This document shows positions 805 to 56,230 of a stretch of DNA of 64,000 nucleotides, piece by piece. A program made the translations under genes and the position numbers. Position 1 is the stretch's first letter. The number at the start of each line of letters is the position of its first letter. This DNA is from a virus, in the IMG/VR virus record IMGVR_UViG_3300034072_000514, positions 1 to 64,000 of that record; one strand, written 5' to 3'. The notes under the pieces were generated by a model. It searched no databases, had not been told where the DNA came from, and worked only from the letters and a program-made list of their open reading frames with translations.

Positions 805-810
805 CGTATA

Positions 811-854
811 AAAAGTGAGAAAAATCATGTATCTATAATAGAAGAATCTTTTAA
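811..854 (+). promoter_or_regulatory. Conserved 44-nt early-region repeat, copy A (candidate phage-specific promoter)
   Basis: aaaagtgagaaaaatcatgtatctataatagaagaatcttttaa matches 1395..1438 at 42 of 44 positions. It lies directly upstream of an RBS and ATG. Confidence 0.5.
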
Positions 855-1394: not shown

Positions 1395-1438
1395 AAAACT
1401 GAGAAAAATCACGTATCTATAATAGAAGAATCTTTTAA
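1395..1438 (+). promoter_or_regulatory. Conserved 44-nt early-region repeat, copy B
   Basis: Differs from 811..854 at 2 positions. It is followed by aaggag and the ATG at 1452. Confidence 0.5.
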
Positions 1439-3771: not shown

Positions 3772-3800
3772 ATCTTTGTATCTATAACAGAAGACTTAAT
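3760..3800 (+). promoter_or_regulatory. Early-region repeat, degenerate copy C
   Basis: aaaagtgagtaaatctttgtatctataacagaagactta aligns with copies A and B. It overlaps the stop codon of the upstream gene. Confidence 0.35.
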
Positions 3801-3845
3801 AAAGCTTCTATCTTTTTTGTTAATTATCTTAAATCAGGAGTGATT

Positions 3846-9706: not shown

Positions 9707-10078
9707 ATGTTTTTACACGAGATGACTACAAATAATTCTATGGATAAACAGTGGTTGGCAGAGATTGCAGGAGAGATTAAGCGCAGCAAGAAGGTGTACC
9801 ATAGCTGCGCAGTAGCTGCGATACTAAAAGAAGCCAAAGCTGCATTAACCACTATGCAGAGCACTCTTGTGAAGGAGGTCAATTTCTCAGTAACTTTGCC
9901 CGATAAACCAAGTAAAGACTTAGAGGTTAGCTATAGAGAAATCTTGTCGGCTGCGAATGAAGCGGTATCACCTAACTTTAGAATTGTGTGCTTGCAAGAT
10001 ATCAGGGGTAAGACACTAGAGGCTCCAGGTCACTCCGTATCTATAGGCTGTAAGGTTTATCTTGTTGATAGTTTGTGA
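9707..10078 (+). CDS. Hypothetical protein
   Basis: 123-aa ORF. The start codon is uncertain. Confidence 0.55.
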   Translation: MFLHEMTTNNSMDKQWLAEIAGEIKRSKKVYHSCAVAAILKEAKAALTTMQSTLVKEVNFSVTLPDKPSKDLEVSYREILSAANEAVSPNFRIVCLQDIRGKTLEAPGHSVSIGCKVYLVDSL

Positions 10079-12778: not shown

Positions 12779-13324
12779 ATGAAACTAATTATTGCAGGCG
12801 GAAGAGACTTTAATAACGCCAACATCACCAAGCTTGGTGTTAAAATGATGTCAAAGCTTATGACTGAGCGGAATAAGCTAAGCACACCCTGGCTACCTAG
12901 TTGCATCGTATCTGGAGGCGCTAAAGGTGCTGACTACCAAGGGCAAGTATGGTCTGCAAACAATAATGTTCCGGTTCAAATTTACCCTGCAGATTGGAAG
13001 GCTCATGGAGCTGGTGCAGGAATGATTCGCAACAAAGAGATGAGTAAGCATGCTGATGCACTGCTTGCCTTCTGGGATGGTAAATCGACTGGAACATTCC
13101 ATATGATCAACACTATGGTTGCTAATAATTCACCAGTTATGGTTATCAGTTACGTGTGGCATGCTGCAAAATACTCCAAAGAGCGCGGATATGAAGCGCC
13201 TTTCTGCACGTTAGGCAAAGAGCATACTGCAAAGAATATAAAGGAAGGAGCTAAGAATTTCCTATTCAGAATCAATAACGGAGAGCTCGTCGCTCCCCAC
13301 GAACAGGAGGATTCTGCAGTCTGA
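12779..13324 (+). CDS. SLOG/DUF2493-family protein (Rossmann-like, DprA/LOG-related)
   Basis: MKLIIAGGRDF...SGGAKGADYQG...MIRNKEM...ADALLAFWDGKSTGTFHMI. Confidence 0.6.
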   Translation: MKLIIAGGRDFNNANITKLGVKMMSKLMTERNKLSTPWLPSCIVSGGAKGADYQGQVWSANNNVPVQIYPADWKAHGAGAGMIRNKEMSKHADALLAFWDGKSTGTFHMINTMVANNSPVMVISYVWHAAKYSKERGYEAPFCTLGKEHTAKNIKEGAKNFLFRINNGELVAPHEQEDSAV

Positions 13325-15266: not shown

Positions 15267-15782
15267 ATGAAAAACACAGTTTATATTGCAGGCCCTATGG
15301 AAGGCCTTTCTCAAAGTGAAATGACAGGCTGGCGAAAAGAATTTACAGAGCTTGCTAATGATCTTCATGTTGTGGACGTTAAAGACCCTACTCGCCGAAT
15401 CCCATTTCGATCAGATGACACGATTAACCAAGCTCGTATGGTGTTTCGTGCAGATCTAATGGATATTAACAACTCAGCAGTAGTCTTTCTTGATTTGCGG
15501 AAGGGTAAAGGCTACGCTTGGGGCACTGCTATGGAAGCTATGTATGCTTGGCAAGCTAATAAACCTTTGATTATCTGGACAAACCAAGAAGACCCCCGCC
15601 ATCCTTTTATTGAATCCATGGCTACAGCAGTAGTGCACAGTCTTCAAGATGGAGTTGAAAAAGTAATTGCGTTGATTGAGCCTCCTAAGCGAGAGGTACC
15701 TGACAGCGGATCTGCTGCCGAAGCTGTAGCAGCAATTTCTCCGAGCTTCTGGCCAAGTCTTTACCATACAAAGGTGCAGTGA
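15267..15782 (+). CDS. Nucleoside 2-deoxyribosyltransferase-like protein
   Basis: VYIAGPMEG...SAVVFLDL...GTAMEAMYAWQANKPLIIW pattern of the NDT/Rcl fold. Confidence 0.6.
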   Translation: MKNTVYIAGPMEGLSQSEMTGWRKEFTELANDLHVVDVKDPTRRIPFRSDDTINQARMVFRADLMDINNSAVVFLDLRKGKGYAWGTAMEAMYAWQANKPLIIWTNQEDPRHPFIESMATAVVHSLQDGVEKVIALIEPPKREVPDSGSAAEAVAAISPSFWPSLYHTKVQ

Positions 15783-16292: not shown

Positions 16293-17649
16293 ATGACTAG
16301 ATTAGTGTTCGACATTGAGGCGAATGGGCTTCTTAAGGATGTCTCAAAAATATGGATGCTTTGTGCGGAAGATCTGGACACAGGAGTTAAATACGATTTT
16401 TGTGACTATGACTCTTCCTGCTATCCTCTTAAGGAGTACAAAGATCTGTTAGCGGAAGCTGATGAGTGTATCGGTCACTTTGTGCTAGGCTACGACTTTC
16501 CTGCACTCGCTAAAGTAGACGGCTTCGTTCTACCTAAAGGGGTTAAGGTTAAGGATACGTTGCTGATGTCGCAGGTGTTAGACTATATGCGATTCGGCTA
16601 CGATGGTCATAGCTTAGATCGGTGGGGTGAATATCTTGGAATCCCTAAACCTGAGCATAAAGTCTGGACTGAGTACTCTCCTGAAATGTTGCACCGCTGT
16701 CGGGAAGATAGGAGGATTAACGTTGAAACCTACAAACTTTTAGTTAATGAGTTCAAGAAGCTACACAGCAAAAAGCCGGTAATTGCCCAGTCACTGCGTA
16801 ATGAGCATAAATGTTTACAGTTTGTAACCCAAGCTGAAATCCTTGGTTGGCCTTTTGATGTACCGGCTGCTGAGAAGCTATTGTTGGAGATCGAGGAGGA
16901 AGAAAGAAAGGTAGCACAAAAAGTTGAACCACTTTTACCTCCATTAATTCGTCTTGCAGACAAGGAAATTAAGGAGCCTAAATGGACAGCTTCCGGTAAG
17001 TACCATAGTCATATTGCTAAGTATTTCGAGATCGACCCTGAAGACGGTCTTCGTGACTTTCCTACAGTAGTAGGCCCGTACATGAAGATTGATCTTATCA
17101 AACCTGATATGGGCTCGATCGAAGCAGTTAAGCAGCTGTTATACTCTATTAATTGGGAACCAGATGATTGGACTTGGAAAAAGGAAGGACGGTCTCTTAC
17201 TAAGAAAGCCCCTAAGCTCTCCACAAGTTCTCTTTTGCCGCTTGGAGAAATAGGAGAGGCAATCGACAAGTTCTATACGCTTAGAAGTAGGGCTTCAATG
17301 GTCCGCGGACTTCTTGAAGAAGTTGATGATAATGGAAGAGTTCACGGTAGCTGCTTTCTTATTGGAACACCCACAGGACGCTCCACCCACAAAGGAATTG
17401 TTAACATACCAGGTGGTGAAGCTCTATATGGCGAAGCAATTCGGAAACTATTCATAGCTAGACCTGGTCACAAAGTTATTGGTGCGGACTCGTCTGGTAA
17501 TCAGATGCGTGCTTTTTGCCATTATCTGCGTAACGATGAGTACACGAATGAGGTGATCAACGGGGATGTCCATACTAAAAATATGGAGGTTCTGCAAGAG
17601 ATTGTCCCGTCTACCACACGGAAAAAGGCTAAGCCATTTTTGTATGCGT
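16293..17649 (+). CDS. Family A DNA polymerase, exon 1
   Basis: VFDIEANGL (Exo I), GADSSGNQMR (motif A) and RKKAKPFLYA (first half of motif B). Confidence 0.9.
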
Positions 17650-18433
17650 CGAATGAGAGCGCAGTTTAAACCGGGAGAATTCGGTGAATCCCCGCTAGGG
17701 CAATACCGAGCCGAGCTTAAGTAGCAATACTTTTGAAGGTGTAACGACTATCCCGAAAGGGAGTACACTCAAGCGAGTGGAAGCACCCGGCATGAGAAAT
17801 CATGATGATATAGTCTGATCTATATAGTAATATATAGCTGTTGCCGCACAACAGAGAAATAAATGGAAGAAGTTTTTGTACCAATAACAAATTACGAAGG
17901 TATTTATGAAATATCGAATTTAGGTAGAGTCAAGAGTTTAGCCAGGGTATCTGCAAGCGGAGCTAAACTAGCACCAAAGATCTTAAAGACATCAGTCAAT
18001 GGCGCTGGTTACCTTAGCGTTTCGCTGTATAAAGGCGAAGGTAAGTGGACAACAAGAGTTCATTGCTTGGTAGCCGCTGCTTTTGTAGAAAATAAGAACC
18101 CCGCTAAATTCAATATAATAAACCACCTTGATGGAGACAAACTCAACCCTGCTAGCACAAACTTAGAGTGGAGCGACCACTCAGGCAACGCACTGCACAG
18201 CTACGCTAGCGGTTTAAGTAGTAACCAAGGTATAACTCACCGATCGAACAAGCTAACTGAAGATGAAGTTAGGTATATTAGATCACAAAAGGGATTGGTA
18301 CATATAGATGAGCTAACTAGTAAATTCAACGTACACCGCCAGACCATTTACGGTATTTGGCAAGGTAAGTACTGGAAGAGTTTGAAATAAGCGGCAACGG
18401 TAGTAATCTAGCGAATTACTGCGAACACAAATG
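17650..18433 (+). mobile_element. Group I intron in the DNA polymerase gene
   Basis: Joining 17649 to 18434 gives KPFLYA|FLFGGGADK, a complete Pol A motif B. The core is highly similar to the intron at 8021..8800, and the intron ends in ...cacaaatG. Confidence 0.8.
17863..18390 (+). CDS. Intron-encoded HNH homing endonuclease (NUMOD4 + HNH)
   Basis: ITNYEGIYEISNLGRVKS, then HCLVAAAFVENKNP..INHLDGDKLN..NLEW. Confidence 0.85.
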   Translation: MEEVFVPITNYEGIYEISNLGRVKSLARVSASGAKLAPKILKTSVNGAGYLSVSLYKGEGKWTTRVHCLVAAAFVENKNPAKFNIINHLDGDKLNPASTNLEWSDHSGNALHSYASGLSSNQGITHRSNKLTEDEVRYIRSQKGLVHIDELTSKFNVHRQTIYGIWQGKYWKSLK

Positions 18434-19380: not shown

Positions 19381-19653
19381 ATGACGTCCACTAAGATTGT
19401 GATTCTTGAAGTTCGTAGATATTTCCTTAAGACCTCTGATAGGATATTCGTTACTAAAAGTGGGGTCACTCGCGATCCTAGAAAGGCCTTGATGGAGGAG
19501 GTACCTAAATCTAACGGAAAGCGACCAGTAGCGCTTGCTATAAAAACTAAGATGCTATCTTTGCATAAAGGTACTATTTCTGAAAACATGGTTAAAATTA
19601 CTGATTTAGCTGAGGTCACTCAAGATGAGCCAATTATTGCAGAAGCCGCCTAA
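19381..19653 (+). CDS. Hypothetical protein
   Basis: ATG at 19381 within ORF 19369..19653. Confidence 0.5.
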   Translation: MTSTKIVILEVRRYFLKTSDRIFVTKSGVTRDPRKALMEEVPKSNGKRPVALAIKTKMLSLHKGTISENMVKITDLAEVTQDEPIIAEAA

Positions 19654-20155
19654 TAACATATTAAGAGCTTATCGAGGATGTAACTTATTCGAAGAGCTAA
19701 CTCAAACACAAAAAGAAGCGCGGTATAATGCGTTCTATATGCGATGTGCATTTAATGCTGCAGAGCTATCTTTCGCTACTAGGCGTAAGGTAGGCGCAAT
19801 TGCAGTTAGGCACGGTAACATTGTGGGTTTTGGTTTTAACGGCACTCCCGCTGGTGCTGCTAACCAATGTGAAGACGAATGTGGTAACACTTTGCCATCT
19901 GTTATACATGCAGAAGCCAACTTGATATCTAAGCTAAATATGCTGGGTATCATACTTTCTGAAGTTAGTATCTACGTAACTAAGGAGCCTTGTAAGAGTT
20001 GTGCTGGCCTAATAGTTAATGAGTTGGAGTATCTTGACAGCTCTAGCTTTAAACTATTTTTTGCGGAAAGCTCAAAAACTAAACCACAAGAAGGGTTGGA
20101 ACACTTATACCATCTAACAAAAGCACAAATTTTTAAGGTAGAAAAACCATGCTAG
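19625..20155 (+). CDS. dCMP (deoxycytidylate) deaminase
   Basis: Zinc-binding motifs HAEANLI and PCKSCAGLI. Confidence 0.8.
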   Translation: MSQLLQKPPNNILRAYRGCNLFEELTQTQKEARYNAFYMRCAFNAAELSFATRRKVGAIAVRHGNIVGFGFNGTPAGAANQCEDECGNTLPSVIHAEANLISKLNMLGIILSEVSIYVTKEPCKSCAGLIVNELEYLDSSSFKLFFAESSKTKPQEGLEHLYHLTKAQIFKVEKPC

Positions 20156-22158: not shown

Positions 22159-22596
22159 ATGGCTACTGTCAAGAAAATTGACAATGGCCACTGGATGTTC
22201 CCTGAACAGCTAGACTTTAAAAAGGCCCAAGGATTCATCTACGTTATTCGTAGAGTTTCTACGGGCCAAATTTATATAGGCAAAAAGAACTTTCGTAGTG
22301 GCGCTAAAAAAGATTTTGGGCGTCAATCAAACTGGAGATCATATACCAGCTCATCAAAAGATGTAAATACGCTTATAGAAACGTTTGGTAAAGAGGACTT
22401 CCGGTTCTTTGTTGTAGAACAATACTACACCAAAGGTGGCTTAGGCTGGGCCGAAACGTGGTCCCAATGCTATGCTGAAGTAGCATCAAATCACGTGAAA
22501 TACCTAAACAGGTTAATTGAGAAAGTCAGCTGGAAATCTACAGAGAAGGTTACAGACAGACACAAAGATAGATTAACTAAACTCATGAATCTATAA
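22159..22596 (+). CDS. Free-standing GIY-YIG homing endonuclease (Seg-like)
   Basis: GFIYVIRRVSTGQIYIGKKNFRSG near the N-terminus. Confidence 0.65.
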   Translation: MATVKKIDNGHWMFPEQLDFKKAQGFIYVIRRVSTGQIYIGKKNFRSGAKKDFGRQSNWRSYTSSSKDVNTLIETFGKEDFRFFVVEQYYTKGGLGWAETWSQCYAEVASNHVKYLNRLIEKVSWKSTEKVTDRHKDRLTKLMNL

Positions 22597-27150: not shown

Positions 27151-27886
27151 TAAATCTGGTGCTCGTAAAATCTATTGAATTGCTGGGATAGCTCTAGTAG
27201 CCAATCAGCAGCCAAGCTTACTGACCTGAAAGAAAGGTCAATATGAAACCACATCCAATTTACACTAAGTACTCTGCTAACGAGTTAGGTAAAATTATTG
27301 GAATTAGAGGCGAGATAACTCCGCACTTCCATAAAAGTACGGGTTACCTGAGATTTTCTATCAGGCATGATGGCAAAATCAAATCTATTGCCGCTCATAG
27401 ATTTATTTGGGAATGTATTAACGGGTTAATTGCCGATGATACACTAGAAATAAATCATAAAGACGGTGATAAGACGCACAATAAGCTAGTAAATTTAGAG
27501 CTGGTTACAGCTTCTGAGAATTGTTTACATAGGTCTACACTTTACTCCGAGACAGGTAGAGGGGAGTCTAATGCAGCTGCTAAACTAAGTGAAATACAGG
27601 CAAAAGAGTTAATATCTCTTCTACCTTATAAACGTAATGTCGAGCTGGGTTTACAATTTGGTCTTCACCCGCAGTATGTTTCTTTAATTAGGACAGGTAA
27701 GCGGTGGAAGCATTTACAATAGTGGTCAGTAAGAAGGTTCAACGACTATCCCTAAGGGGAGTACACCTAAGTAGGTGGAAGCAGTAGATACAGGAAACTG
27801 TAATGATATAGTCTGATCTATATGGCGACATATAGCTGCAAGTAAAGTTGCGGGTATTGATTAACGACCAATACTGAACATAAATG
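27151..27886 (+). mobile_element. Group I intron in nrdB
   Basis: Joining 27150 to 27887 gives WSI|RDETLH (second ExxH iron ligand) in frame. The 5' part (aattgctggga..cagcagccaagctta) resembles the intron at 52628..53392. The intron ends in ...cataaatG. Confidence 0.8.
27243..27722 (+). CDS. Intron-encoded HNH homing endonuclease
   Basis: HRFIWECINGLI...INHKDGDKTHNKLVNLE. The ORF is looped out between tactgacc and ggtcagta. Confidence 0.8.
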   Translation: MKPHPIYTKYSANELGKIIGIRGEITPHFHKSTGYLRFSIRHDGKIKSIAAHRFIWECINGLIADDTLEINHKDGDKTHNKLVNLELVTASENCLHRSTLYSETGRGESNAAAKLSEIQAKELISLLPYKRNVELGLQFGLHPQYVSLIRTGKRWKHLQ

Positions 27887-28745: not shown

Positions 28746-29208
28746 TAGCCTCGGTGATGTAAAAGGTAAGCGCATTTCGATGGACTCAGTGGCAGGTGAA
28801 TATAAAGACCTGGCTATTGAGCTGTTTAAACGTGAGGCGCGGATTGTAGTCGCTGACCGTGACAAGGCTAACGTGCAGGCACTGAACCGCATCTTGTTTG
28901 AGATGTCTGGTAGTGCCGATCGTTACCGCACTGTCCCATTTAGCAATATCATGTTTGAACCTGCAGACCTTTTCCTGTCCATTGACAAACAGTCTGACAG
29001 CGATAAAGACCCGGCCAATGTAGCATTTTCGCGAAAGATCTCTATTAATGAACCAGCAACCAAACCGTCAGCGCAAACAACAACCCAAGCAGCACCCACT
29101 GCGCAAGCATCTGCTCCAGCCCAAGCAGCGCCCGCTCAACCAGCAGCGCAAAAGCAAGCCCCAGCCCCAGCAAAGCCAGCAGGTCAGCCTGCTCCCGCAG
29201 CCAAGTGA
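28690..29208 (+). CDS. Hypothetical protein with an Ala/Pro/Gln-rich low-complexity tail
   Basis: ATG at 28690 follows gaaggaa. The tail reads AQTTTQAAPTAQASAPAQAAPAQPAAQKQAPAPAKPAGQPAPAAK. Confidence 0.55.
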   Translation: MTNTTNAQTSTSAMSELLNSLGDVKGKRISMDSVAGEYKDLAIELFKREARIVVADRDKANVQALNRILFEMSGSADRYRTVPFSNIMFEPADLFLSIDKQSDSDKDPANVAFSRKISINEPATKPSAQTTTQAAPTAQASAPAQAAPAQPAAQKQAPAPAKPAGQPAPAAK

Positions 29209-29215
29209 AACTTTA

Positions 29216-29779
29216 ATGCGGCCTGTATTTGAGAAGCCAGACAATGTGCTTATTGAAAATGGGCTACTTTGGTTGACTGATGACGTATCGGAGGAGACCA
29301 TCCCTCCTTTGGTACGTGCGATATGGGAGATTAATCTTATGCCGCCTGAATTGCAACCTCCAATTATTCGACTGTTTGTTAACAGTTATGGAGGCAGCAT
29401 GACCGACGGTATTGCGCTACTTGATGCAATGAAAATGTCTAAGATTCCAGTAGCCACTATTGTTAGTGGTATGGCTGGCTCGATGGGACAAATCATTGCT
29501 ATGCACGGCTGTAAGGGGCTGCGCTGTATGACACCTAACAGTGTGATTATGGCTCATCAATTTGCAGCTGGTATCGGGACAGCTAAGGAGCACGAGTTGA
29601 AAGCAGTGTTTACACATTTCCAAAACGCAGGCTCTCTGGCTATCCGCTGGTTCAAGGAGTGTACCGGGAAGAGTGAGCATTACATTAGGAAGCACCTGCA
29701 AGGCCCTTCTGATGTGTTTATGACACCGGAAGATGCTCTGAAGCATGGTCTTATCGACATTATTCTGAAAGAAATCTAA
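29216..29779 (+). CDS. clpP: ClpP-family (S14) serine protease
   Basis: NSYGGSMTDGIALLDAM, SGMAGSMGQII (Ser), VIMAHQF (His) and DVFMTPEDALKHGLID. Confidence 0.8.
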   Translation: MRPVFEKPDNVLIENGLLWLTDDVSEETIPPLVRAIWEINLMPPELQPPIIRLFVNSYGGSMTDGIALLDAMKMSKIPVATIVSGMAGSMGQIIAMHGCKGLRCMTPNSVIMAHQFAAGIGTAKEHELKAVFTHFQNAGSLAIRWFKECTGKSEHYIRKHLQGPSDVFMTPEDALKHGLIDIILKEI

Positions 29780-41885: not shown

Positions 41886-42302
41886 ATGAGCTTACTCGAT
41901 AGAAAAGGTCCGGTATTCTATGTATATTTACACTATGAAATCGTAAATGGTAATAGGGAAATTGTGTATGTAGGTAAGGGTTCAGGCGGTAGGGCATGGG
42001 ATGCTAGACCTACTACTAGAGGTAATAACGGAGGGCATAATGACCATTGTGGGTGGATATGCGATAAGATCCTTAATGATGTACCGTTTGTCCAGCTATT
42101 CGCTACTAAAATCCTGAGTAGTGAGGCACTAGAAATTGAAAAGAGGTTGAGAGAACAGTATAAGCCTCGGTTTAATGTCTCTAGTGGTAACTCAAATCTA
42201 AGTAACTCAAATCTAAGTAACTCAAATCTAAGTAACTCAAATCTAAGCGCTAGGGGCATGACTGTTGGCGATCTGAAGGCTTCTGCTTTGACGGTGAGCT
42301 AG
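41886..42302 (+). CDS. Free-standing GIY-YIG-type endonuclease with a C-terminal pentapeptide repeat
   Basis: VFYVYLHYEIVNGNREIVYVGKGSGGRAW, with (SNSNL)x4 near the C-terminus. Confidence 0.6.
   Translation: MSLLDRKGPVFYVYLHYEIVNGNREIVYVGKGSGGRAWDARPTTRGNNGGHNDHCGWICDKILNDVPFVQLFATKILSSEALEIEKRLREQYKPRFNVSSGNSNLSNSNLSNSNLSNSNLSARGMTVGDLKASALTVS
42187..42246 (+). repeat. Perfect 15-bp tandem repeat x4 (gtaactcaaatctaa)
   Basis: Read directly from the sequence. It is in frame inside the GIY-YIG ORF. Confidence 0.95.
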
Positions 42303-46959: not shown

Positions 46960-47028
46960 ATATGCGTGATCTCAATCCAATCTCTATCTAACCAATTTAA
47001 TAACTAACGATCTTTGAAAGGATCACTA

Positions 47029-48591
47029 ATGCTGTTTAATGTAACAGGACAAACACGGCGTACTGTGGGTGATCCTAATGAGAAATACACAGCCATGCAG
47101 GAGTCGTGGCGACGTGCTCGTGCTATCATGGGTGGAGAGGCTACAGCTAAGGCTGCGGATTTGATTTTGGACACCACTACATTCTCCAATCTGCTGCTGC
47201 CGTTCAGTACTAATATGACGCAGGCTCAGTACGATTTCTACAAAGCAGAAGCAGAGCTACCTGGGCTTACAGGGCAGTATGCTAGCGCACTAATAGGGGG
47301 CTTGCTGAGGAAGCAACCACAATTCACTTTACCTAAATCGTTAGATAACGAAGAGAACCGTACTTGGCTCAATAACTCTTTTGGTGCTCAGGGACAAAGT
47401 CTGGTTAGCTTCCTTGCTGATGCACTTGCTGAGGAAATGCAGACATCTCGTGCGTGGGTTCTTGTTGAGACTAGTGCTGGTGTGAATGCTGCGGAAGTTA
47501 AACCTTTTGCTGTTAATCTTCCTGCTGAGTCTGTTATTAACTGGCGTAGGGATGAGAATCAGCGGCTTATCAAGCTTACTCTCCGGTACTACACTGAAGA
47601 GTTTGAAGAGGACAACCCGCATCATCCAACCTATGTTGACACTGTTAGCGATTACAACATCGTTAACAACCAGCTTGTTGTAACCAAATACAAGCGTAAA
47701 CGTAAGCAGAACACGGCACCTACTCGCGAGGGTAATGTAGTAGTTTCTCCTCCAATGGAAGCTTCTGCCGAGGAATGGGAACAGTTTGCTACACTAGTAC
47801 CTCTGTTGAGGGGTGAACCTATGACGTTTATCCCTGCATGGCCTCTTAATGGCAGCATTGAGGTTCAGAAGCCTATGAATCAGACGCTGGTTGACCGTGA
47901 GATTTCCCTGTACAACAAGGTATCTCGCCGCAACCACCTACTGTACGGGGCGTGTACGTATACTCCTGTTATTAGCGGTAACTTCCCTGATGATGACAGC
48001 TTTCAACGTATGGTGGTCAATAAGGGTCTTGGCAGTTGGCTTAACATCCCTGAGGGTGCATCAGCTACTATTCTACAGACACCTACAGCTGCTATTAAGG
48101 ATATCAACGAAAGTATCGAGCAGAACGTTGCAGAGATGTCCCGTATGGGTATCCGTATGCTTACCCCTGACGGCACTGCTGCTGAATCGGGTGTAGCTCT
48201 TGAGATCAAGAACGCTTCTCAGACAAGTCAGCTAGGTCTGCTTAACAATAAGGCTAGCAAGTCTCTTGAGATCATCATTAGCATGATGCTTCATATGCGC
48301 TATGACATTGCTTTTAGTGACGCGCAGGAAGAAACCAGCTTTACCCTTAGTGTGGACTTCAATCCTACTCCGCTTGGTGCAGACTGGATGCGGTTGGTTA
48401 CTGAGTGGTATGAAGGCCGCAAGATTCCTCGTAGTGTGTTCTTGCAGATTGCTAAGCAGAATGATATCTTACCTATGGACTATGATGACAAGGTCGGTCA
48501 ACAGGAGATTGAGCAAGACCCTCTGATTATGGACGCTATGCCGTCAGCTAAAGTCGATGTAGAAAACGCTCTTAGAAAGGCTCAACAATGA
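47029..48591 (+). CDS. Probable portal protein
   Basis: 520-aa ORF between the terminase/PhoH genes and the MuF-domain gene. The call rests on size and position only. Confidence 0.6.
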   Translation: MLFNVTGQTRRTVGDPNEKYTAMQESWRRARAIMGGEATAKAADLILDTTTFSNLLLPFSTNMTQAQYDFYKAEAELPGLTGQYASALIGGLLRKQPQFTLPKSLDNEENRTWLNNSFGAQGQSLVSFLADALAEEMQTSRAWVLVETSAGVNAAEVKPFAVNLPAESVINWRRDENQRLIKLTLRYYTEEFEEDNPHHPTYVDTVSDYNIVNNQLVVTKYKRKRKQNTAPTREGNVVVSPPMEASAEEWEQFATLVPLLRGEPMTFIPAWPLNGSIEVQKPMNQTLVDREISLYNKVSRRNHLLYGACTYTPVISGNFPDDDSFQRMVVNKGLGSWLNIPEGASATILQTPTAAIKDINESIEQNVAEMSRMGIRMLTPDGTAAESGVALEIKNASQTSQLGLLNNKASKSLEIIISMMLHMRYDIAFSDAQEETSFTLSVDFNPTPLGADWMRLVTEWYEGRKIPRSVFLQIAKQNDILPMDYDDKVGQQEIEQDPLIMDAMPSAKVDVENALRKAQQ

Positions 48592-48692
48592 GTAATAATC
48601 CATCTCTTATTGGTATTTGGGTTACCGTAGTGGCGGTAATCTCTGCGGTGGTGATCACACTATCTAAGGTGATGTATGCTACAGCGTGCTAA
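48588..48692 (+). CDS. Small membrane peptide (34 aa)
   Basis: ATGA overlap with the portal stop. Contains IGIWVTVVAVISAVVITL. Confidence 0.4.
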   Translation: MSNNPSLIGIWVTVVAVISAVVITLSKVMYATAC

Positions 48693-49173
48693 GCTCTTGG
48701 TTACTGTGCTTGCTGTGACACTCTTGATGGGTTGCTCACAGCTTGTAGGCTTGCTTAAACCTGGAGGCATTAACGCTAATGCTCAGCTAGGTAAAGAGAA
48801 CACACAGCAGGTTGTGGCTAATCAGAAGGTTGAGGAGGTTACTGTAACAGGTAATACCGGTGAAACTTCTGTAGTAAAAGCGGAGTCTGCTGTAGTTGCT
48901 GAAAAGGTAGATAAGGTGGTCACTGCAGCTAGCACAAAAGCTGTAGTGGCTGGTCCTACTGTAGCCCCTAGTGTTGTATCGGAGCATGTAGAGCAGATCA
49001 AAACAAGCAATAAAGCTCAAGAAGTCGTAGCTGGCCCTGGTAGTCAGGTGATTGTTAATCAGACTGACCGCTATCCAGCTTGGCTTATTCTTTTGTTGGT
49101 TATAGGGTGGGTTCTACCTACTCCTGTAGCTATTCTAAATTGGGTTCTAAATAAGTTCCGCAGATCAAACTAA
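48676..49173 (+). CDS. Lipoprotein with a C-terminal transmembrane helix (u-spanin-like topology)
   Basis: Lipobox LLMGC after a signal sequence, and a C-terminal YPAWLILLLVIGWVLPTPVAILNWVL. Confidence 0.6.
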   Translation: MLQRAKLLVTVLAVTLLMGCSQLVGLLKPGGINANAQLGKENTQQVVANQKVEEVTVTGNTGETSVVKAESAVVAEKVDKVVTAASTKAVVAGPTVAPSVVSEHVEQIKTSNKAQEVVAGPGSQVIVNQTDRYPAWLILLLVIGWVLPTPVAILNWVLNKFRRSN

Positions 49174-49183
49174 AGGAAGATAA

Positions 49184-52100
49184 ATGTCATATAACCAAGA
49201 GATTTATGACCGTGTAGTGCAGCATTTAGCTGACACAAGGTTATATGAAGCAGAGACTCAAAGTAACGCTTCAAATGCTATTCAAAGGCATCGCCTGCGC
49301 TTGGCTGATCTCTTGGCTAGAGACATTCGGGCAGATGTCGGACCGGAAGTGAACCGTGCTATGACTGAGGTGAACTCTATTACTAGCACGGCAATCACAG
49401 AGTATGGATCTGCTGCTATTACTTTCAATGTTAATAATCTTAACAAGTCTATTGGCAGCTTCTTCACAGTTCGTAAGCCAACTGGAGTAGACGTGCTGCA
49501 AGAGATTGTGGGTAGTAATATTGGTGTTAGCAAAACGCTGGCTCAGCAGTTTAACTCTATCGGAGAGCATGAGCTTATCAGGCTCCAGCAGATCATTGGT
49601 AGAGGTATTCTTGCTAAGGCCTCTCAGGCTGAGATCATTAAGGAGGCTCTTGGTGCTACCTCAATGACAGAGAATCAAGTGCGAGCTCTTGTGCGAACTT
49701 CGCTTACCCGTACTCAGTCAGTAGCTATAGATCGTGTGATGGAGGCTAATGCTGATGTTGTACAAGGTTATAGGTTCACAGCAGTATTAGACGCTAGGAC
49801 TTCAGCTATCTGCTCAGGTCTTGACGGTAAGGTCTTTCCTCTTTCAGAGAAGAAATACCGACCACCAATGCACTGGAATTGTCGTAGTAGTACCGTACCT
49901 GTTCTGAAGAACAAGGCTGACTTGCTATCTACAGACTCCACACGCATCAATAAGAAGGCTCTTGAAGCGCAAAACATAAAGAATCTACAAGGCGATGTAC
50001 CTAAAGTAGAGGATTATGGCGGATGGCTTCGTAGGCAACCTATGGAGGTCAAACTGCAGCATCTAGGTAGCGAAGAACGGGTATCTCTATTTGAGAAGGG
50101 TACGCTTGCTGTTAAGGAATTCTTTACCAGTACAGGTAACCAGATTAGCCTTGCTACTTTACGTAGGCTGGACAACATGCGCACAACAATCTTTCCTAAT
50201 AGGCAGGTCGCATTGGCTAAGGCTGCAGAGGATGGCTTTATGGTTAAGGCTAGCCGTCCTTATGACGTACTACGGTCTCCTCAAATTCAGAATGAGCTGA
50301 AGGCTATGTATATATCTGATGCGAGCAGTATGAACCAACCTATGTCACTAGTAGACTTCCGAGGTACATCACTTGCAGGTAAGCGGGCTACTCGTATCAG
50401 GTCGAATAACGAGTTCGATGAGCGCAACACATCTTGGGATCCTTTTACTGGAGAAGTAAAGAGTACTTTGTTGTACGACCCTGATTTCAATGTGTATCAG
50501 GAGCGTAAAGACTTCTTGTATGCAAGCAAGATTCTGACTAAAGACCAAAAAGACTTTATTGCTTCCTTTGTAGAGAGTCTCGAGGATTCTATTAGTGTCA
50601 ACCAGCAGTCTGCTGTGCTTGAGAATCTTCGCGTTGTGTTTGAGCGTTATGCTAAGGACAAGAAGCCTTGGACAGACCTGATGAATGTCTTGCGAGCAGA
50701 GTCTCAGTACTCTGTAGTAAACGTAAGCCGTATCTTGGACAGGCGTAGTAGAGAGCGGGCTGACTTGTTTAGTAAATACCTCAGTGGTGAGGAACCTAAG
50801 GTGCAGATCTTCGGTGAGTACTACAACTTTGATCAATTATCTGAGCGGCAGCTCGACAATCAGCGGTATATTGACAACTGGAAAAATACTGTAGGTAGGG
50901 AAAAGGCTAGGGACGCTTACTACAGCAAAACTACACCGCTAAGGCAGTTCTTATTTGATCCAAAAGGTAAGTCTAAGAGTTGGTTAAAACAGCTTAAGTC
51001 TGCGCTAGAGAAAGAGTTCCCTGCAGTTAAGCAGCTTGAAGGGTGGGGTAATCCTACTGAGAGCCTCTTGCAAAAGGCTAGTAGGAATCTGCGGGAGAGC
51101 TATCGTAACATCGTTGACCTTGAGTTCTTGTTTCAGCAGAGTAAGAATTCAACCATAAAGTCGCTGTTTAGCCAAATGTTCTTTGGGACTACTAAGGGTA
51201 AAACTTTCACAGATGCACTACTGTCTGAAGGTCTGAATGACGCTAAGGGTATTGACGTATTTGCAGATGTGATGACCCTTGTTGCAGACGGTAAGAGTAC
51301 TGACTATGACTCGCTTGCTATTAACATTGGCAAGAAGATCAACGAGAAGTGGCCTATCGACTTCCCTTTAAGAGCGGTCACTCTGGCTGACCACCATAAG
51401 GCAGGTAGCCGTATTCTTGAAGCTCTGAGGGACCAGAAGAAGATTCGTGTAGTGTCTCGTGGTGTTGTTCGTAGAGCGGCCATTGATATTGATACAGGAC
51501 GTCCTAGCGGTGCATGGCAAGATACTGTCAGCCGTGAGGTTACCATTCTTGACCCTGATATGCTTGAGCTTCAAAAGAGGAACAGGCAGAATATTATCGC
51601 TCAGCGTCTTGGTGTTGTGAGTGATAGGGATAGACTATACGTACGCCCTGGAGAAAAGACTTATTTCGATGCAAGAGGTAAAAATACAGGGCAATCTATT
51701 ATCACTCGTAGGGCGTCTGCTAACTACGATAAGCTGATTGTAGATCGCGATTTTGCAGACATGCTTAATCATACTATGACGGTTGAGTACGAGACTGACA
51801 AGACCTTTGCTAGCTTCATGGATGATGTTGTTCGTTTTAGAGACCCGCGTGGGCAAGTTCAGAAGTATGACGATCTGAATGATTTTCGTAAACTTATTCT
51901 TCAACGGGGAGACCAAGGTTTTGGTTTTATGCAAACAGTTAAATGGCATACTCAGCGGGGAAAGCCCTTTAAGGTTCTTGCTCAAATTGACGGTCGTGGC
52001 CGGGTCTACTATCAAGGCTATCTAACTCCTACCGGGGGTGAGGTGGTTCGACCTTTCCTGAATAGTGCAGTGGCACGACAATTTGGGCCTGAAGAGCTAC

Positions 52101-52627
52101 AAGAGCTATCCATCCAGCTAGGGGCTATGATCGGTCCTGCTACTGAGGCACTTACTCAAGCAGGCCGTATGGAGATATTTATTCGTAATGAAAAGGACGT
52201 TCTTAGTTTGGGTAGGCTGATGATGAGCACTACTCAGAGAGACCGACGAATTAGAGAGTTCCTTGAGCACCCTCTTATTCGCTCTCATGATGCAGAAGAA
52301 ATTCCTAAGATTTCTCGTATGGCACTTGAATATGCCCGCGTATATGATCATGTTGGAGGTAATTTCGGTGATCTCGCTAAGCTACGTACTTATAACACAA
52401 AGCTAATGATTGAGAACGACGCTTCCTCTTCGGGAGCTCAGATTATTGGGCTCTCTACGGGTGATCGATCTATCTCTATTAATAGTAATGTGCTTGCAAC
52501 TGACAAGAAGAACCGACTGTATGACTTGGTCGCTATGGATACTGCTAGTGACCCAGAGTTCCATGCTATCAAGGCTCTTTCAGGAGCTAACATACAGTGG
52601 ACCGATCTTGCAAAAGCAGCTAAGGCT
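49184..52627 (+). CDS. MuF/SPP1-gp7 head-morphogenesis domain fused to a single-subunit RNA polymerase, exon 1
   Basis: YRFTAVLDARTSAICSGLDGKVF..PPMHWNCRSSTVPV (MuF), AQIDGRGRVYY (T/DxxGR) and MIENDASSSGAQIIG (motif A). Confidence 0.85.
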
Positions 52628-53392
52628 TAACATAATGGGTCTTTTAAAATTCCGTTAATTGCTGGGACACCTCACGAAATGAGGCAATCAGCAGCCAAGC
52701 TTAAGTAGGAATACTTTTGAAGGTTCAACGACTAGAGTGTACAATCCAGGCCGGATTATGAGACTCGTAGGGCGCAAGTGCGTTCGAAACGCGGAACAGG
52801 TAGAAATACTTGAAGATATAGTCTGAACTATATAGTGATATATAGGATTAATTGGGACACAAATATGGAAATAATTTGGAAGAATTTCGAAGATACTGAC
52901 TATATTGTTAGTAATACTGGTATAATTATAAATACAAGAACTAACAAAACTATTAACCAGTTTCCGGGAGGTACTGGTGGGTATATGATGGTCAATATCT
53001 GGCACAATAAAATGAACAGAATTGTTGCTGTACATCGTGTAGTGGCAGAAACATTTATTCCAAATCCGTTAAATAAGAGAACTGTAAATCATATCGATGG
53101 CAATAAGCTTAATAATTTCGTAAATAATTTAGAGTGGTCTACCTATTCTGAAAATTTGAAGCATGCAGTTGATACAGGGCTAAACCATCGAGGTATGGCA
53201 AAGCCTAACGCCAAATTAACTGACGATAAGGTAATTGAAATACGTAAACTCTTCCTTAACGGGGCTACAAATAGTGTAATAGCAAAGTTGTATAATGTTG
53301 CTGACGGAACTATTAGCCAAATTCGTAACGGATTCACATGGAAACATGTACAATTAATCGATAGTAATTAACGCCTACTATTTAACATAATG
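52628..53392 (+). mobile_element. Group I intron in the MuF-RNAP gene
   Basis: Joining 52627 to 53393 gives LAKAAKA|QNMVSFYGAG in frame (motif B K..YG). The core aattgctggga..cagcagccaagcttaagtag..ttgaaggttcaacgact..gatatagtctgaactata is related to the other three introns. The intron ends in ...acataatG. Confidence 0.75.
52865..53371 (+). CDS. Intron-encoded HNH homing endonuclease (NUMOD4 + HNH)
   Basis: WKNFEDTDYIVSNTGIIIN, then HRVVAETFIPNP..VNHIDGNKLNN..NLEW. Confidence 0.8.
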   Translation: MEIIWKNFEDTDYIVSNTGIIINTRTNKTINQFPGGTGGYMMVNIWHNKMNRIVAVHRVVAETFIPNPLNKRTVNHIDGNKLNNFVNNLEWSTYSENLKHAVDTGLNHRGMAKPNAKLTDDKVIEIRKLFLNGATNSVIAKLYNVADGTISQIRNGFTWKHVQLIDSN

Positions 53393-54397
53393 CAAAATAT
53401 GGTTAGCTTCTACGGGGCGGGTAAGGCCACTCAGGCAGCTAATATTGAAGCAAAGTTTGCTAAAGTACTAGAGGGTAAGGGATATACCGTTATCACGAAA
53501 GACTCTCTAAAAGCTGCGATAGCTCCTATTAACAAGGCGATTAAAGACGCGGAGTACTTAGGTGCAAGCGAAACCGCTAGGTCTCTTAAAGAAATTAAGA
53601 AAGAGCTCATAGAAGTAGTTAATGGTGAAACAGACATTGGCTATGACCTTATACAAGCGGCTAGGGATGTACATCCTGATGTTAGTCAGTTTGTAGATGA
53701 GCTAACAAACGTAAAAGTGGGTCTTATTGGGCCTGCACAGTTTAAGCAGGTGTCTGAGATTATGTCGAAGCATCTTGCCGAACGTGCTCCCGTTACTGGT
53801 AAGTTCGTGCAATTCTGGAAGCAAGCGTCTAAAGCGTTTATAAATGAAACAGAGAAGGTAGACATCCCGTGGGTAACCTTTGATGGCAAAGTACTTTATC
53901 AGCGTTATAGGCCTAAAATTCAGGAGAGCATCAACTTTATCGATCCTGTCACAGGTAGACGAGTTCGTAATATCTATCAGGATAGCGTAACAGATAGTAA
54001 TCTTCAGGGTAAGTCTAGCATAATTCGTGCTAGTATTGGCTTTGGAGTTAATGGTAACCACATGAATGATGCAACAATTGTTCGCAGATTTCATTTATGG
54101 GGTAAAAAGAATGGTGTAGGTACAGCTACTATCCACGATGCGTTCTTCACTAATATTGGAGATGCAACTAAGGCTAAGTGGGCTCTTAGAGAGATCTATG
54201 CGGATGCCCTTGATGGGGATACCATCCGGAATACACTAAAGAGGATGCGTGATGAAGGTATGTCTGAGGCTACTTATCAAGAGCTTCTTCGCGTAGCGCG
54301 AGAGGACGGCTTAATTGATCCTCCCAACAAAATTACTAGAGCAGATGTGCTAGCAAAGATTCCAAAAGGAATGGACTGGTATGGTATTGGTCCATAG
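53393..54397 (+). CDS. MuF-RNAP fusion, exon 2
   Basis: FYGAG (motif B Tyr-Gly) and GTATIHDAFFTN (motif C). Confidence 0.85.
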   Translation, partial: QNMVSFYGAGKATQAANIEAKFAKVLEGKGYTVITKDSLKAAIAPINKAIKDAEYLGASETARSLKEIKKELIEVVNGETDIGYDLIQAARDVHPDVSQFVDELTNVKVGLIGPAQFKQVSEIMSKHLAERAPVTGKFVQFWKQASKAFINETEKVDIPWVTFDGKVLYQRYRPKIQESINFIDPVTGRRVRNIYQDSVTDSNLQGKSSIIRASIGFGVNGNHMNDATIVRRFHLWGKKNGVGTATIHDAFFTNIGDATKAKWALREIYADALDGDTIRNTLKRMRDEGMSEATYQELLRVAREDGLIDPPNKITRADVLAKIPKGMDWYGIGP

Positions 54398-54464: not shown

Positions 54465-55124
54465 ATGAAATTCAAACGTAATGCAGATGGTTCGTTGGTT
54501 CTTGATGATGCTGGTAACCCTATCCTGGAAGATGCAGGAGAAGAGGTAAACAACATCGTTCAGAGCAAGGTGTCGGAAGAGCTTAAGGCGATCAAAGAGA
54601 AGCTTGATAACGCTTATAAAGCTCGTGATGCCGCTGCGGCCAAGGCTGCTGAGCTAGCAGAAGCTCAACGTCTTGCTGATGTCAAGCGTCTTGAAGATGA
54701 AGGTAAGCATGCAGAAGTAGCGCAAATGAAGATCTCCCATATGGAAGGTCAACTGAAGGCTGCTCAAGCACGTATTACCGAACTTACTCGGGATGCTGCT
54801 GTGGATAGTGCTATTGGAGGTTTGAACTTCCAAAGCCCTGCTGCAGCTAAGGCAGCGCGCCGTGAAATTATTGACCAACTGGTCTGTGATGAAAACGGGG
54901 TGTGGATGCATAAGACGGGAGTTTCGATTAAGGACGCTGTTCTGGCTTTCGAGAAGCATGAAGACAATGCTTTCTTGTTTAAGCCTAAGCAAACTACTGG
55001 TACTGGATTTGATGCAAGTGGTAAACCCATTGACACATCGGCTGGTATTGGTGGTCGTAAAATGAGTGATATCCCTGTTGCCGAGATGCTCGCTTTGGCG
55101 GCTCAAGGTAAGATTAAAATGTAA
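54465..55124 (+). CDS. Probable scaffolding protein
   Basis: Ala/Glu/Lys-rich coiled-coil ORF immediately upstream of the capsid gene. Confidence 0.6.
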   Translation: MKFKRNADGSLVLDDAGNPILEDAGEEVNNIVQSKVSEELKAIKEKLDNAYKARDAAAAKAAELAEAQRLADVKRLEDEGKHAEVAQMKISHMEGQLKAAQARITELTRDAAVDSAIGGLNFQSPAAAKAARREIIDQLVCDENGVWMHKTGVSIKDAVLAFEKHEDNAFLFKPKQTTGTGFDASGKPIDTSAGIGGRKMSDIPVAEMLALAAQGKIKM

Positions 55125-55138: not shown

Positions 55139-56230
55139 ATGATCGATCATACCCTCTTTAAGAACATCGCTGTTGCTATCTCTGCGTACAGCCATGAAGC
55201 CTACACGAACGCTAAGAAGATCAATGGTACCGCCATTGTGTCGACTGACGGTCGTATCTCTGGTGATAACGAAAGCTTTATCGGCCAAATGCGCTGGTAC
55301 AAGCCTCAGGCTCCTGTGATTAACAACGCTAGCCTGACTAACTCCGCTGCTGGTACTTATACCGATCTGTCTACTGAAGTCGCTGACTACATCAAGGCCG
55401 CTCGTACTGTCGGTACTCAGCAAGTTAACCTGCAAAGCCTGATCTCTCAGCAAGATGGCCTGGCTAAGATGTCGCGTGACTACGCTGAACATCGCGCTCA
55501 AGATGAGCACAATGCTATCCTGTCGGTGCTGAAGGGTGTTGCCGCTTACGAAGCTTCTCGTGGTACCGGTATTGACACCTTTGATACTAACGCTGATGGC
55601 GCTACCACCGGCTTCTTTGTGGACATCAACGCTGCTGGTGCTTTTGGGGCTGCTGCTGTGGATGCCGCTACTGAGCGTAAGCTGATTGACAACACCGCTA
55701 CTGGCGCTGCTCGTGGCGAGCGTCTCTTCCGCGCTCTGGGCATGGCTTACAAGGACTACGAAGGTGACTTCATGTACATGGTTACTAGCCCTGAACTGCT
55801 GGCTGACCTGCGTGCTGCTAACCTGGTGGATACGACGGTTACCACAGAAGGTAGCATGACCTTCCAGACCATCTTTGGTGGTAAGTTCCGTCTGCTGCTG
55901 ACTCGTGCTGCTCAAGGTAACGTGTCGGCATCGGCTAACGTAAACGATCGTTCTACCAAGACGACTTTCCTGCTGAAGCCAGGCTGTGTATCGTTTACCG
56001 GTATTGCTGTGCCTACTCCTGTGGAAGTGCAGCGTAACGCTGAAGCCTATGCTGGTGGCGGCTCTACCTCTATCTGGTACCGTTGGTCCTTTATTGCTCA
56101 TCCTCTGGGCTACAACTGGGCTGGCGCTACTAATGCGTTTGCTACTGACGCTGCTTATGGCACTGCTGGTAGCTGGACTCGTAAGATGGATGCGCTGAAT
56201 CTGGGCATTCTGCCTATCTTCCACTCTTAA
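55139..56230 (+). CDS. Probable major capsid protein
   Basis: 363-aa ORF after the scaffold gene, with codon usage biased toward ctg/ggt/gct. The long antisense ORF is treated as a shadow. Confidence 0.7.
   Translation: MIDHTLFKNIAVAISAYSHEAYTNAKKINGTAIVSTDGRISGDNESFIGQMRWYKPQAPVINNASLTNSAAGTYTDLSTEVADYIKAARTVGTQQVNLQSLISQQDGLAKMSRDYAEHRAQDEHNAILSVLKGVAAYEASRGTGIDTFDTNADGATTGFFVDINAAGAFGAAAVDAATERKLIDNTATGAARGERLFRALGMAYKDYEGDFMYMVTSPELLADLRAANLVDTTVTTEGSMTFQTIFGGKFRLLLTRAAQGNVSASANVNDRSTKTTFLLKPGCVSFTGIAVPTPVEVQRNAEAYAGGGSTSIWYRWSFIAHPLGYNWAGATNAFATDAAYGTAGSWTRKMDALNLGILPIFHS

Follow-up and report, generated by a model that had tools for sequence, protein, structure and literature searches.

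The viral DNA considered here is a stretch of 64,000 nucleotides (nt), positions 1 to 64,000 of IMG/VR record IMGVR_UViG_3300034072_000514, which is referred to below as the window. Within its capsid module lies a gene, interrupted by a group I intron, whose product we call MuF-RNAP. Profile searches and structure predictions support the assignment of its N-terminus as a MuF/SPP1 gp7-type minor head module, and of residues ~340–1482 as a complete, very divergent single-subunit RNA polymerase (RNAP) of the T7 type with its catalytic residues intact. Both modules had been recognised in an earlier note made from the letters of the window alone, and searches with each of them gave MuF matches (Pfam, PHROG, BFVD) and RNAP matches (HHalign, Foldseek). 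We suggest that the protein is carried in the virion, and that it probably starts transcription of the phage early genes in the next infected cell. The coordinates of all features are collected in Table 1.

The + strand of the region holds three open reading frames (ORFs), at 49184..52630, 52835..53371 and 53390..54397. The first encodes 1148 amino acids (aa) and ends ...DLAKAAKA*, and the third encodes 335 aa and starts MQNMVSFYGAG. The Rfam group I intron model RF00028 matches at 52579..52845 with 86.2 bits against a gathering score of 50 (E 4.5e-22), and positions 1–253 of the model are fully matched. The intron has its catalytic core in approximately the first 220 nt, with the HNH ORF toward its 3′ part. 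At the 5′ splice site it is preceded by U52627 (...AAG GCU|UAACAUAAUGGGUCUU..., that is, GCU|UAACAU), and at the 3′ splice site (...AACAUAAUG|CAA AAU AUG, or AAUG|CAA) its final base is G53392. By inspection, the exon end AAGGCU can pair with GGUCUU to form P1, with the usual U·G at the splice site.

Joining 52627 to 53393 gives a single frame of 1,482 codons, encoding a protein of 167.1 kDa with a pI of 9.3. This frame was proposed in the earlier note and is borne out by the Rfam match and by comparison with two uninterrupted versions of the gene. The spliced product is 48% identical from end to end to an uninterrupted 1,463-aa protein of the cultured roseophage DSS3_VP1, with no gap at the junction (DLAKAAKA|QNMVSFYGAG in the window and DLAKGAKAANMVTFYGAG in DSS3_VP1). 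An intronless metagenomic allele, 86% identical at the nucleotide level, reads GCTAAGGCT|CAGAACATG where the window has GCTAAGGCT|CAAAATATG. The peptides quoted in the note were likewise all found in place. The intron splits motif B of the polymerase, between the codons for Lys1147 and Tyr1155. It is concluded from the sequence that the intron boundaries are canonical, that ligation restores the invariant motif exactly, and that the mRNA must lose the intron before the full-length protein can be made.

Self-splicing and endonuclease-driven homing are putative properties of the 765-nt intron, for which the support is indirect. The intron is a passenger, a homing-endonuclease parasite, and has no bearing on what MuF-RNAP does. 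Its HNH insert occurs in none of the 80 related loci that were fetched. EBPR siphovirus 1 (locus L002, JF412302) encodes a MuF-RNAP that is ~31% identical and has its own group I intron at 9824..10050 (40.5 bits, E 2e-8); this is located ~4 codons downstream of the insertion site in the window and is independent. In the 2011 record of that phage, gp47 ('head protein'), gp48 (HNH) and gp49 ('hypothetical') are together one intron-split MuF-RNAP gene.

The window itself contains four related group I introns, at 7951..8209, 17581..17837, 27199..27842 and 52579..52845, whose cores are ~72% identical. They have a common 3′ core (TGAAGATATAGTCTGA.CTATATAGT.ATATATAG) and an HNH-family ORF in each, and they split the genes for a canonical RNAP (described below), DNA polymerase A, the small subunit of ribonucleotide reductase (nrdB) and MuF-RNAP. 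The nrdB intron scores 31.9 bits, which is under the Rfam threshold, and its core lies partly within the HNH ORF 27243..27722.

The N-terminal part of MuF-RNAP had been described as carrying the MuF/gp7 hallmark, and Pfam, PHROG and the predicted fold agree with this. Pfam PF04233 (Phage_Mu_F) matches residues 135–237 over profile positions 8–111 of 112 (40.9 bits against a cutoff of 29.6, E 3.9e-10), and phrog_241 ('head morphogenesis') matches residues 2–331 (E 9.8e-51). An AlphaFold model of residues 1–340, made with 49 family sequences, has a predicted local distance difference test score (pLDDT) of 88.7 and a predicted template modelling score (pTM) of 0.86. Foldseek found 117 matches to this model in BFVD at E≤1e-3, nearly all of them minor capsid or head morphogenesis proteins, and the neighbours include MuF proteins with other cargo, namely the ADP-ribosyltransferase (ART) of Xanthomonas phage Xp12 (E 4e-13) and a zeta-toxin fusion. 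Against the PDB there was no significant match, only helical-bundle noise, which is not unexpected because no MuF structure has been solved.

The MuF part is found in every full-length relative (the Pfam scan of relatives excluded the most distant full-length ones, P0184 and P0201). The same MuF domain and the adjacent ~300 residues occur with other C-termini in P0203, P0206, P0220 and P0221, and the segment of residues ~340–590 is also present in MuF proteins that have no RNAP. In P0167, P0178 and P0181, MuF and RNAP are followed by extra C-terminal sequence. The RNAP thus behaves as cargo on a reusable carrier, because the carrier is shared with other C-termini and the MuF folds joined to ART and zeta toxin are its structural neighbours. 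C-terminal to MuF, RNA_pol is the sole domain that Pfam, PHROG and Foldseek found in the protein, with no toxin or anti-host effector domain. Background from SPP1 fits a head-targeting role: gp7 enters the procapsid via portal binding and supports the initiation of infection (PMC6316719), and gp7-like proteins are described as thought to bring fused toxins into the capsid for delivery (PMC6316719; PMC5512222).

The polymerase part is recognisable in sequence, at low similarity. Pfam PF00940 (RNA_pol) is marginal on exon 2 (24.3 bits against a gathering score of 22); it is precomputed for full-length relatives, one of which (P0167) scores 35.8 bits. The PHROG family phrog_414 (RNA polymerase) matches both exons colinearly (exon 2 E 1.9e-10). 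In a sequence search of the PDB, T7 RNAP was the sole meaningful match, with E 1.8e-4 for the single sequence and 8.6e-6 for the family profile. Three colinear segments align with it, covering the DxxGR, motif A and motif C regions, such that DGRGR (936–940), D1079 and H1396-D1397 fall on D421–R425, D537 and H811–D812 of T7. HHalign of the family profile against T7 RNAP gives a probability of 93.7% (E 2e-7) over 394 columns (T7 417–838). The same profile against residues 998–2103 of N4 gp50 (mini-vRNAP, vRNAP being virion RNAP) gives 0.1% (E 0.46), and the N4 chain is absent both from the PDB sequence matches at E≤1 and from the 50 best Foldseek matches. The earlier description as T7/N4-like therefore stands for T7 and not for N4. 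Membership of the N4 vRNAP family was rejected on the HHalign result, the length of 1,482 aa with a MuF N-terminus, and the siphovirus context.

The predicted structure is more informative about extent. The AlphaFold model of residues 340–1482 has a pLDDT of 82.2 and a pTM of 0.76, and residues ~592–684 are a low-confidence linker. The 50 best Foldseek matches in the PDB are all single-subunit RNAPs (T7, yeast and human mitochondrial), each with a probability of 1.00, E from 4.8e-19 to 3e-15, 880–1300 aligned columns and template modelling (TM) scores, normalised to the target, of at most 0.58. Because these alignments span 880–1300 columns, essentially the whole T7-type enzyme appears to be present, including the N-terminal domain. 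The motifs are indeed in the last ~550 residues, as had been claimed, but the RNAP-homologous part is about twice as long, at ~1,100 residues.

In an alignment of 50 family sequences reaching down to 52% identity, D936, R938, G939, R940, D1079, K1147, Y1155, G1156, H1396 and D1397 are invariant; the Tyr occupies the position that discriminates ribonucleoside triphosphates. Promoter-specific RNA synthesis is the activity predicted for such a protein. The divergence is extreme. BLASTP of the spliced protein against T7 RNAP finds two short segments only, 29% identical over 125 aa and 22% over 185 aa, and the Foldseek structural alignments of the polymerase model have 10–15% identity overall. An exhaustive HMMER scan of 1.84 billion representatives returned 144 clusters only and never reached the ordinary T7-like RNAPs.

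The position of the gene is also consistent. It had been placed between a probable portal gene and the scaffold and major capsid genes, which is correct for the window, with one 165-aa ORF intervening, and for all informative relatives: of the 80 loci, the 34 that are informative for the portal gene all have it directly upstream, and the 44 that are informative for the capsid gene all have it downstream. The phage had also been called long-tailed, in agreement with the tape-measure ORF and with the cultured relatives. The DSS3 phages are siphoviruses with tails of 230–240 nm and DNA substituted with deoxyuridine (dU) (PMC8323127).

Members of the family fall into 200 or more protein clusters and are encoded in no fewer than 588 IMG/VR stretches (viral contigs), both being lower bounds. 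They are usually 1,450–1,600 aa long and most have both PF04233 and PF00940 precomputed. Their names hardly ever go beyond 'SPP1 gp7 family head morphogenesis protein' or 'minor capsid protein'; the label DNA-directed RNA polymerase is attached to a few short fragments. Of 50,697 records of sequenced phages, those with MuF-RNAP are DSS3_VP1 and DSS3_PM1 (Naomviridae) and EBPR siphovirus 1 only. Megablast of the 5.2-kb region against these genomes gave no match, and the relatives are visible at the protein level only. The window and DSS3_VP1 have ~24 colinear genes in common, with 25–59% protein identity.

A second, canonical T7-like RNAP is encoded in the window by a gene that is also split by an intron, just after motif B. 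Its splice junction, TLGYGGTAYGMG|QQVNDDT, was verified against the DSS3_VP1 'RNA polymerase' (47% identity). The gene is present in both DSS3_VP1 (at 42,436) and DSS3_PM1 as well as in the window, and the possession of two polymerases is therefore a family trait. MuF-RNAP and its canonical counterpart in the window match each other at E 0.7 in BLASTP, and to judge from this the two are not recent paralogues. In EBPR siphovirus 1, which is a partial record, neither a second RNAP nor the promoter element described next was seen.

Repeats had been reported near the left end of the window, at 811..854 and 1395..1438. They are real, and with a third copy form a 49-nt family. The consensus is AAAGTGAGRAA-N8-9-ATCTATAAT followed by a purine-rich start, ~35 nt in all, and no further copy of its core is present in the 64 kb. 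When IMG/VR was scanned with a 17-nt core, 10 related contigs were recovered; these also keep the upstream box AAAAAGTGAGAAAAA at a fixed distance, and their flanks are unrelated. In 8 of these 10 metagenomic contigs the canonical RNAP gene follows ~1.6 kb downstream of the element and points the same way, and one contig has a 63%-identical MuF-RNAP in addition to the element. DSS3_VP1 has exactly two copies (AAAGTGAGAAAACTAAGGCATCTATAAT) in 75 kb, at 35792 and 36239, and this region (35.8–36.3 kb) follows closely on the tape-measure gene and is succeeded by the first of the small early genes. A further relative (L053) has three copies. The copies, two or three per genome, stand where the early operon with the canonical RNAP gene begins. 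Such conservation of a non-coding element is striking because the proteins shared by the window and DSS3_VP1 are only 25–59% identical. Several lineages also have a short inverted repeat, AGAAGA..TCTTCT, 3′ of the element.

The early promoters of N4 are DNA hairpins, with a stem of 5–7 bp and a 3-nt loop. Copies 1 and 2 of the element contain a palindrome, TCTA-TAA-TAGA, that is no longer intact in copy 3 or in one copy of the DSS3_VP1 pair, the linear sequence being kept. An N4-type hairpin promoter was rejected, since it is the linear sequence and not the palindrome that is conserved. The early region is not enriched in promoters of the sigma70 type (12 found, against 14.6 ± 3.9 expected). 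The element is a putative phage-specific promoter of MuF-RNAP, a reading for and against which we find the chances evenly balanced.

These observations can be combined as follows. MuF-RNAP would be made late, together with the head genes. By analogy with SPP1 gp7, and as proposed for MuF-toxin fusions, its MuF module would bind the portal and bring a few copies into the procapsid, giving low-copy incorporation into virions. In the next infection it would leave the capsid along with the DNA and transcribe the early operon from the two or three copies of the ~35-bp conserved element. That operon would include the gene for the canonical RNAP, which would take over middle and late transcription, the MuF-RNAP gene included. 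The result would be a two-polymerase cascade analogous, with different parts, to those of N4 (vRNAP, then RNAPII) and P23-45 (tape-measure-fused vRNAP, then non-virion RNAP, nvRNAP). Packaging by itself we consider highly probable, from homology and gene position. The chain as a whole, from MuF-mediated packaging and exit with the DNA to early transcription from the element and the switching on of the canonical RNAP, we think probable. A stronger version, in which Naomviridae-like siphophages are fully independent of host RNAP, the portal-docked enzyme being injected with the first DNA, reading a double-stranded ~35-bp promoter and switching on the second T7-like RNAP, is tentative and we hold it with some doubt.

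Several points weigh against this proposal. The open-access literature searched contains no virion proteome, rifampicin test or transcript map for any member of the family, and the case for packaging comes from homology and gene position only. A protein of 167 kDa must unfold to pass a 230-nm siphovirus tail, and partners for an ejection channel like that of N4 or T7 were not identified. No distinct middle or late promoter motif for the second RNAP emerged from a crude k-mer search of the intergenic sequence, and the early genes are separated from the canonical RNAP gene by a terminator-like hairpin (6205–6228). The element has a perfect TATAAT, with its upstream box at about the position of a T4 MotA box, and could thus be recognised by host sigma70 holoenzyme, either unaided or helped by an activator.

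This last point leads to the main rival, in which MuF-RNAP is packaged and ejected as proposed, and the element is read by host sigma70 RNAP, perhaps with a phage activator as at T4 middle promoters. The injected polymerase would then pull the genome in (in T7, transcription draws the genome into the cell), prime replication, or transcribe a few pre-early genes elsewhere. Every copy of the element does have a perfect or near-perfect –10 hexamer (TATAAT or TATAAC), and a GTGAGA box lies 13 nt upstream of it, near the MotA-box geometry of T4 that is the basis for the likeness to middle promoters. However, there is no –35 box and no TGn (extended –10), and the element has ~20 fixed positions over 35 nt, which is beyond what sigma70 needs, in phages of apparently very different hosts (that of DSS3_VP1 is an alphaproteobacterium). 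An activator would also need to be present before any phage gene is expressed. We regard this account as unlikely. It is distinctly improbable, in our view, that MuF-RNAP is never delivered to a new host and works in the cell that makes it, either transcribing late genes or, bound to the portal, coupling transcription to DNA maturation and packaging. T7 RNAP is implicated in concatemer processing, DNA maturation and packaging, the MuF-RNAP gene lies within the late head operon, and ejection is not directly demonstrated by these data; but the canonical RNAP would already serve the late genes, and the MuF fusion, unnecessary for a cytoplasmic enzyme, is kept across more than 140 clusters at 50% identity. 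Homologues of the MuF part are, moreover, internal head proteins active at the start of infection (PMC6316719).

Two further rivals concern the gene product itself, and we give very little credence to either. The HNH insertion might have broken the gene, leaving two separate polypeptides (a split polymerase, like N4 RNAPII gp15/gp16) or no functional product. Automated callers do give two ORFs, the exact 1148-aa exon-1 product is present in public protein sets (P0002), and an in-frame ATG (53390) directly precedes exon 2. That ATG, by inspection, has no preceding Shine-Dalgarno sequence, the group I intron match is strong and full-length, the intron follows the canonical U and ends in G, and three other essential genes of the genome (RNAP, DNA polymerase and nrdB) are interrupted by related introns, which would be lethal if unspliced. 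Both a two-subunit polymerase made without splicing and a pseudogene were rejected on the intron match, the restored motif and the missing Shine-Dalgarno sequence. The other suggestion is that the polymerase-like part is catalytically dead, and that the protein is only a DNA-binding or structural internal head protein. It draws on the divergence, sequence searches giving T7 RNAP an E no better than 1e-4 to 1e-5, and on motif B, which has no canonical arginine at the position of T7 R627, a further point against our proposal; a nearly invariant Lys1144 lies one residue away. Against it, the metal- and NTP-binding residues of T/DxxGR and motifs A, B and C are all invariant across the family, and the whole T7-type fold including the N-terminal domain is confidently predicted.

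Table 1. Positions of the features in the window. RNAP, RNA polymerase; ORF, open reading frame.
Feature	Position	Strand	Basis or remark
MuF/SPP1 gp7-type minor head (capsid-targeting) module, predicted, residues ~1–335	49184..50188	+	Pfam, PHROG, predicted fold
MuF core peptide quoted in the earlier note	49769..49903	+	position check
Single-subunit RNAP module, predicted, first part, residues ~340–1148	50201..52627	+	DGRGR, motif A, motif B Lys
DGRGR (T/DxxGR), residues 936–940	51989..52003	+	
Motif A, MIENDASSSGAQIIG	52406..52450 (Asp1079 52418–52420)	+	
Motif B	Lys1147 52622..52624 (exon 1); Tyr1155-Gly1156 53411..53416 (exon 2)	+	
Motif C, TATIHDAFFTN	His1396-Asp1397 54134..54139	+	
MuF-RNAP gene, exon 1 (codons 1–1148)	49184..52627	+	Shine-Dalgarno-like AAGGAAG 5′ of ATG
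MuF-RNAP gene, exon 2 (codons 1149–1482 and TAG stop)	53393..54397	+	holds motif B YG and motif C HD
Group I intron, 765 nt	52628..53392	+	Rfam match; junction set by intronless homologues
HNH (HNH_3) homing-endonuclease ORF within intron	52865..53371 (ATG 52865; open frame from GTG 52835)	+	Pfam E 1.9e-8
Portal protein gene	47014..48591	+	DUF4055 E 1.6e-13, SPP1_portal; phrog_145 E 3e-54
165-aa ORF between portal and MuF-RNAP genes	48676..49173		weak Rz-like spanin PHROG match, E 1.9e-6
Scaffold gene	54465..55124	+	directly 3′ of MuF-RNAP gene
Major capsid protein gene	55139..56230	+	3′ of scaffold gene
Tape-measure ORF	from 59415, runs off window end		supports long tail
Canonical T7-like RNAP gene, 759 aa	6356..9415; exons 6356..8020, 8801..9415	+	PF00940 E 7e-43, 4.5e-24
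Group I intron in canonical RNAP gene, 780 nt	8021..8800	+	Rfam 71.2 bits; just after motif B
HNH/NUMOD4 ORF in canonical RNAP intron	8202..8750		
Promoter-like element, copy 1, AAAGTGAGAAAAATCATGTATCTATAATAGAAGAAT	806..854	+	after terminator-like hairpin 764–797, before ORF at 871
Promoter-like element, copy 2	1390..1438	+	
Promoter-like element, copy 3	3755..3803	+	more diverged, TATAAC

Some other features of the window were recorded. The 165-aa ORF upstream of the MuF-RNAP gene encodes a lipoprotein signal with an LLMGC lipobox, together with a transmembrane helix at the C-terminus, and resembles a unimolecular spanin; a close relative (L003) has an ORF of the same size at this position. 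DSS3_VP1 has a dCTP deaminase that has been characterised experimentally, and a protein of the dCMP/dCTP-deaminase family encoded in the window (19625..20155) shares 35% identity with it, which hints that the phage of the window may also have dU-substituted DNA. No HD-type dTMP phosphatase, an enzyme of the dU pathway, turned up in the scanned ORFs, which took in only some of the small ones. Genes for a YspA/SLOG-domain protein (12779..13324) and a nucleoside 2-deoxyribosyltransferase-family protein (15267..15782) lie among the nucleotide-metabolism genes and may be relevant to a modified-nucleotide pathway.

The early region encodes a homologue of Gad1 (Gabija anti-defence 1; 2698..3771, Pfam E 8.6e-35). 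A free-standing SegE-type GIY-YIG endonuclease gene (22159..22596) is found just before the primase-helicase gene, and a ClpP-family protease gene (29048..29779) lies far from the head module. A perfect tandem repeat of four 15-nt units (GTAACTCAAATCTAA) at 42187..42246 is just upstream of a stretch of ~420 nt that has no called gene and lies ahead of the packaging genes. A tRNA scan of the window found none.

The fusion appears not to have been described previously, although the pair of domains is already visible in precomputed Pfam annotations, and it joins two known kinds of protein, the virion RNAP and the MuF cargo. The open-access literature searched (PMC, bioRxiv), including the Naomviridae papers and a survey of polyvalent proteins, contains no mention of a MuF-fused RNAP or of a virion RNAP in these phages, and MuF-RNAP is not mentioned in an Endozoicomonas-phage preprint or in the dU-enzyme paper. 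To our knowledge, virion-packaged RNAPs are known from few phage groups only, namely N4-like, phiKZ/AR9-like, crAss-like and P23-45, and each such discovery has altered the understanding of early infection. If the proposal is right, MuF-RNAP would represent a fourth way of building such a system, in which a siphovirus joins a T7-type enzyme to the generic MuF module that targets the head, and a third independently evolved route of virion-RNAP delivery, the first of the T7 type in a long-tailed phage. The cargo of MuF proteins could then be core phage machinery, beyond toxins.

The scale is considerable, with at least 588 viral contigs, including a phage family reported to be abundant in seawater and missed by ordinary sequencing; Naomviridae-like phages are largely invisible to standard metagenomics because of their dU-DNA. 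The proposal would explain how dU-DNA Naomviridae start infection, a point absent from the Naomviridae literature examined, and would tie dU-DNA genomes in general to self-supplied transcription. It would also mean that a promoter is shared across phages of different bacterial classes, and that the polymerase and promoter are a pair orthogonal to T7 and possibly of use as a transcription tool. The cultured phages DSS3_VP1 and DSS3_PM1, a named MuF-RNAP (QGH74596.1) and a defined promoter sequence make the reading testable now.

Among known systems, the proposed arrangement recalls N4, which has three early promoters. From the genes alone, the likeness to gp50 would be that of a T7-family single-subunit RNAP carried in the capsid and ejected, with a handful of early promoters at one end of the genome, and a second phage RNAP (RNAPII in N4) to follow. 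The architecture is different, as had been claimed, and this holds for size, domains, virion type, promoter type and the lack of profile similarity: gp50 has ~3,500 aa with its own N- and C-terminal domains for ejection and encapsidation and belongs to a podovirus, whereas here there are 1,482 aa, MuF targeting and a siphovirus. N4 uses hairpin promoters on single-stranded DNA, in contrast to the candidate promoter here, whose small palindrome is not conserved.

The Thermus phage P23-45 is nearer in virion type. It is a siphovirus with a virion RNAP fused to a structural protein; the targets of this enzyme are pre-early genes, one of which encodes a second RNAP that is not part of the virion. 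Its enzyme is, however, of the two-barrel type and fused to the tail tape measure; ours is of the right-hand T7 type and fused to a MuF module, which is head-internal and portal-associated. The MuF polymorphic toxins and polyvalent proteins share the MuF/gp7 N-terminus encoded beside the portal gene, and a variable C-terminal domain carried into the capsid for delivery at infection (PMC6316719; PMC5512222). The cargos listed there are toxins or effectors (ART, RelA/SpoT, phosphoribosyltransferase (PRTase), RNases and zeta kinase), and the searched text of the survey (PMC5512222) mentions no RNA polymerase. Here, by contrast, the cargo is a polymerase of ~1,100 residues which would serve the phage's own programme, and the window has no obvious lysogeny genes.

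With T7 and mitochondrial RNAPs (PF00940) the likeness is of the fold of the whole chain (Foldseek E ~1e-18) and of the motifs T/DxxGR, A, B and C. MuF-RNAP differs in its N-terminal carrier of ~340–600 residues, in having ~84 more residues between DxxGR and the C-terminus, and in motif B, which has KxxK in place of RxxxK. Finally, the dU-DNA phage AR9, a close relative of PBS2, can infect independently of transcription by host RNAP, by means of a virion RNAP and another RNAP of its own (PMC5312081), and is a precedent for what is proposed here. The virion RNAPs of AR9 and phiKZ are multisubunit two-barrel enzymes of jumbo myoviruses, whereas MuF-RNAP is a single T7-type polypeptide of a 65–75-kb siphovirus; dU-substituted DNA is common to AR9, PBS1/PBS2 and the cultured Naomviridae members.

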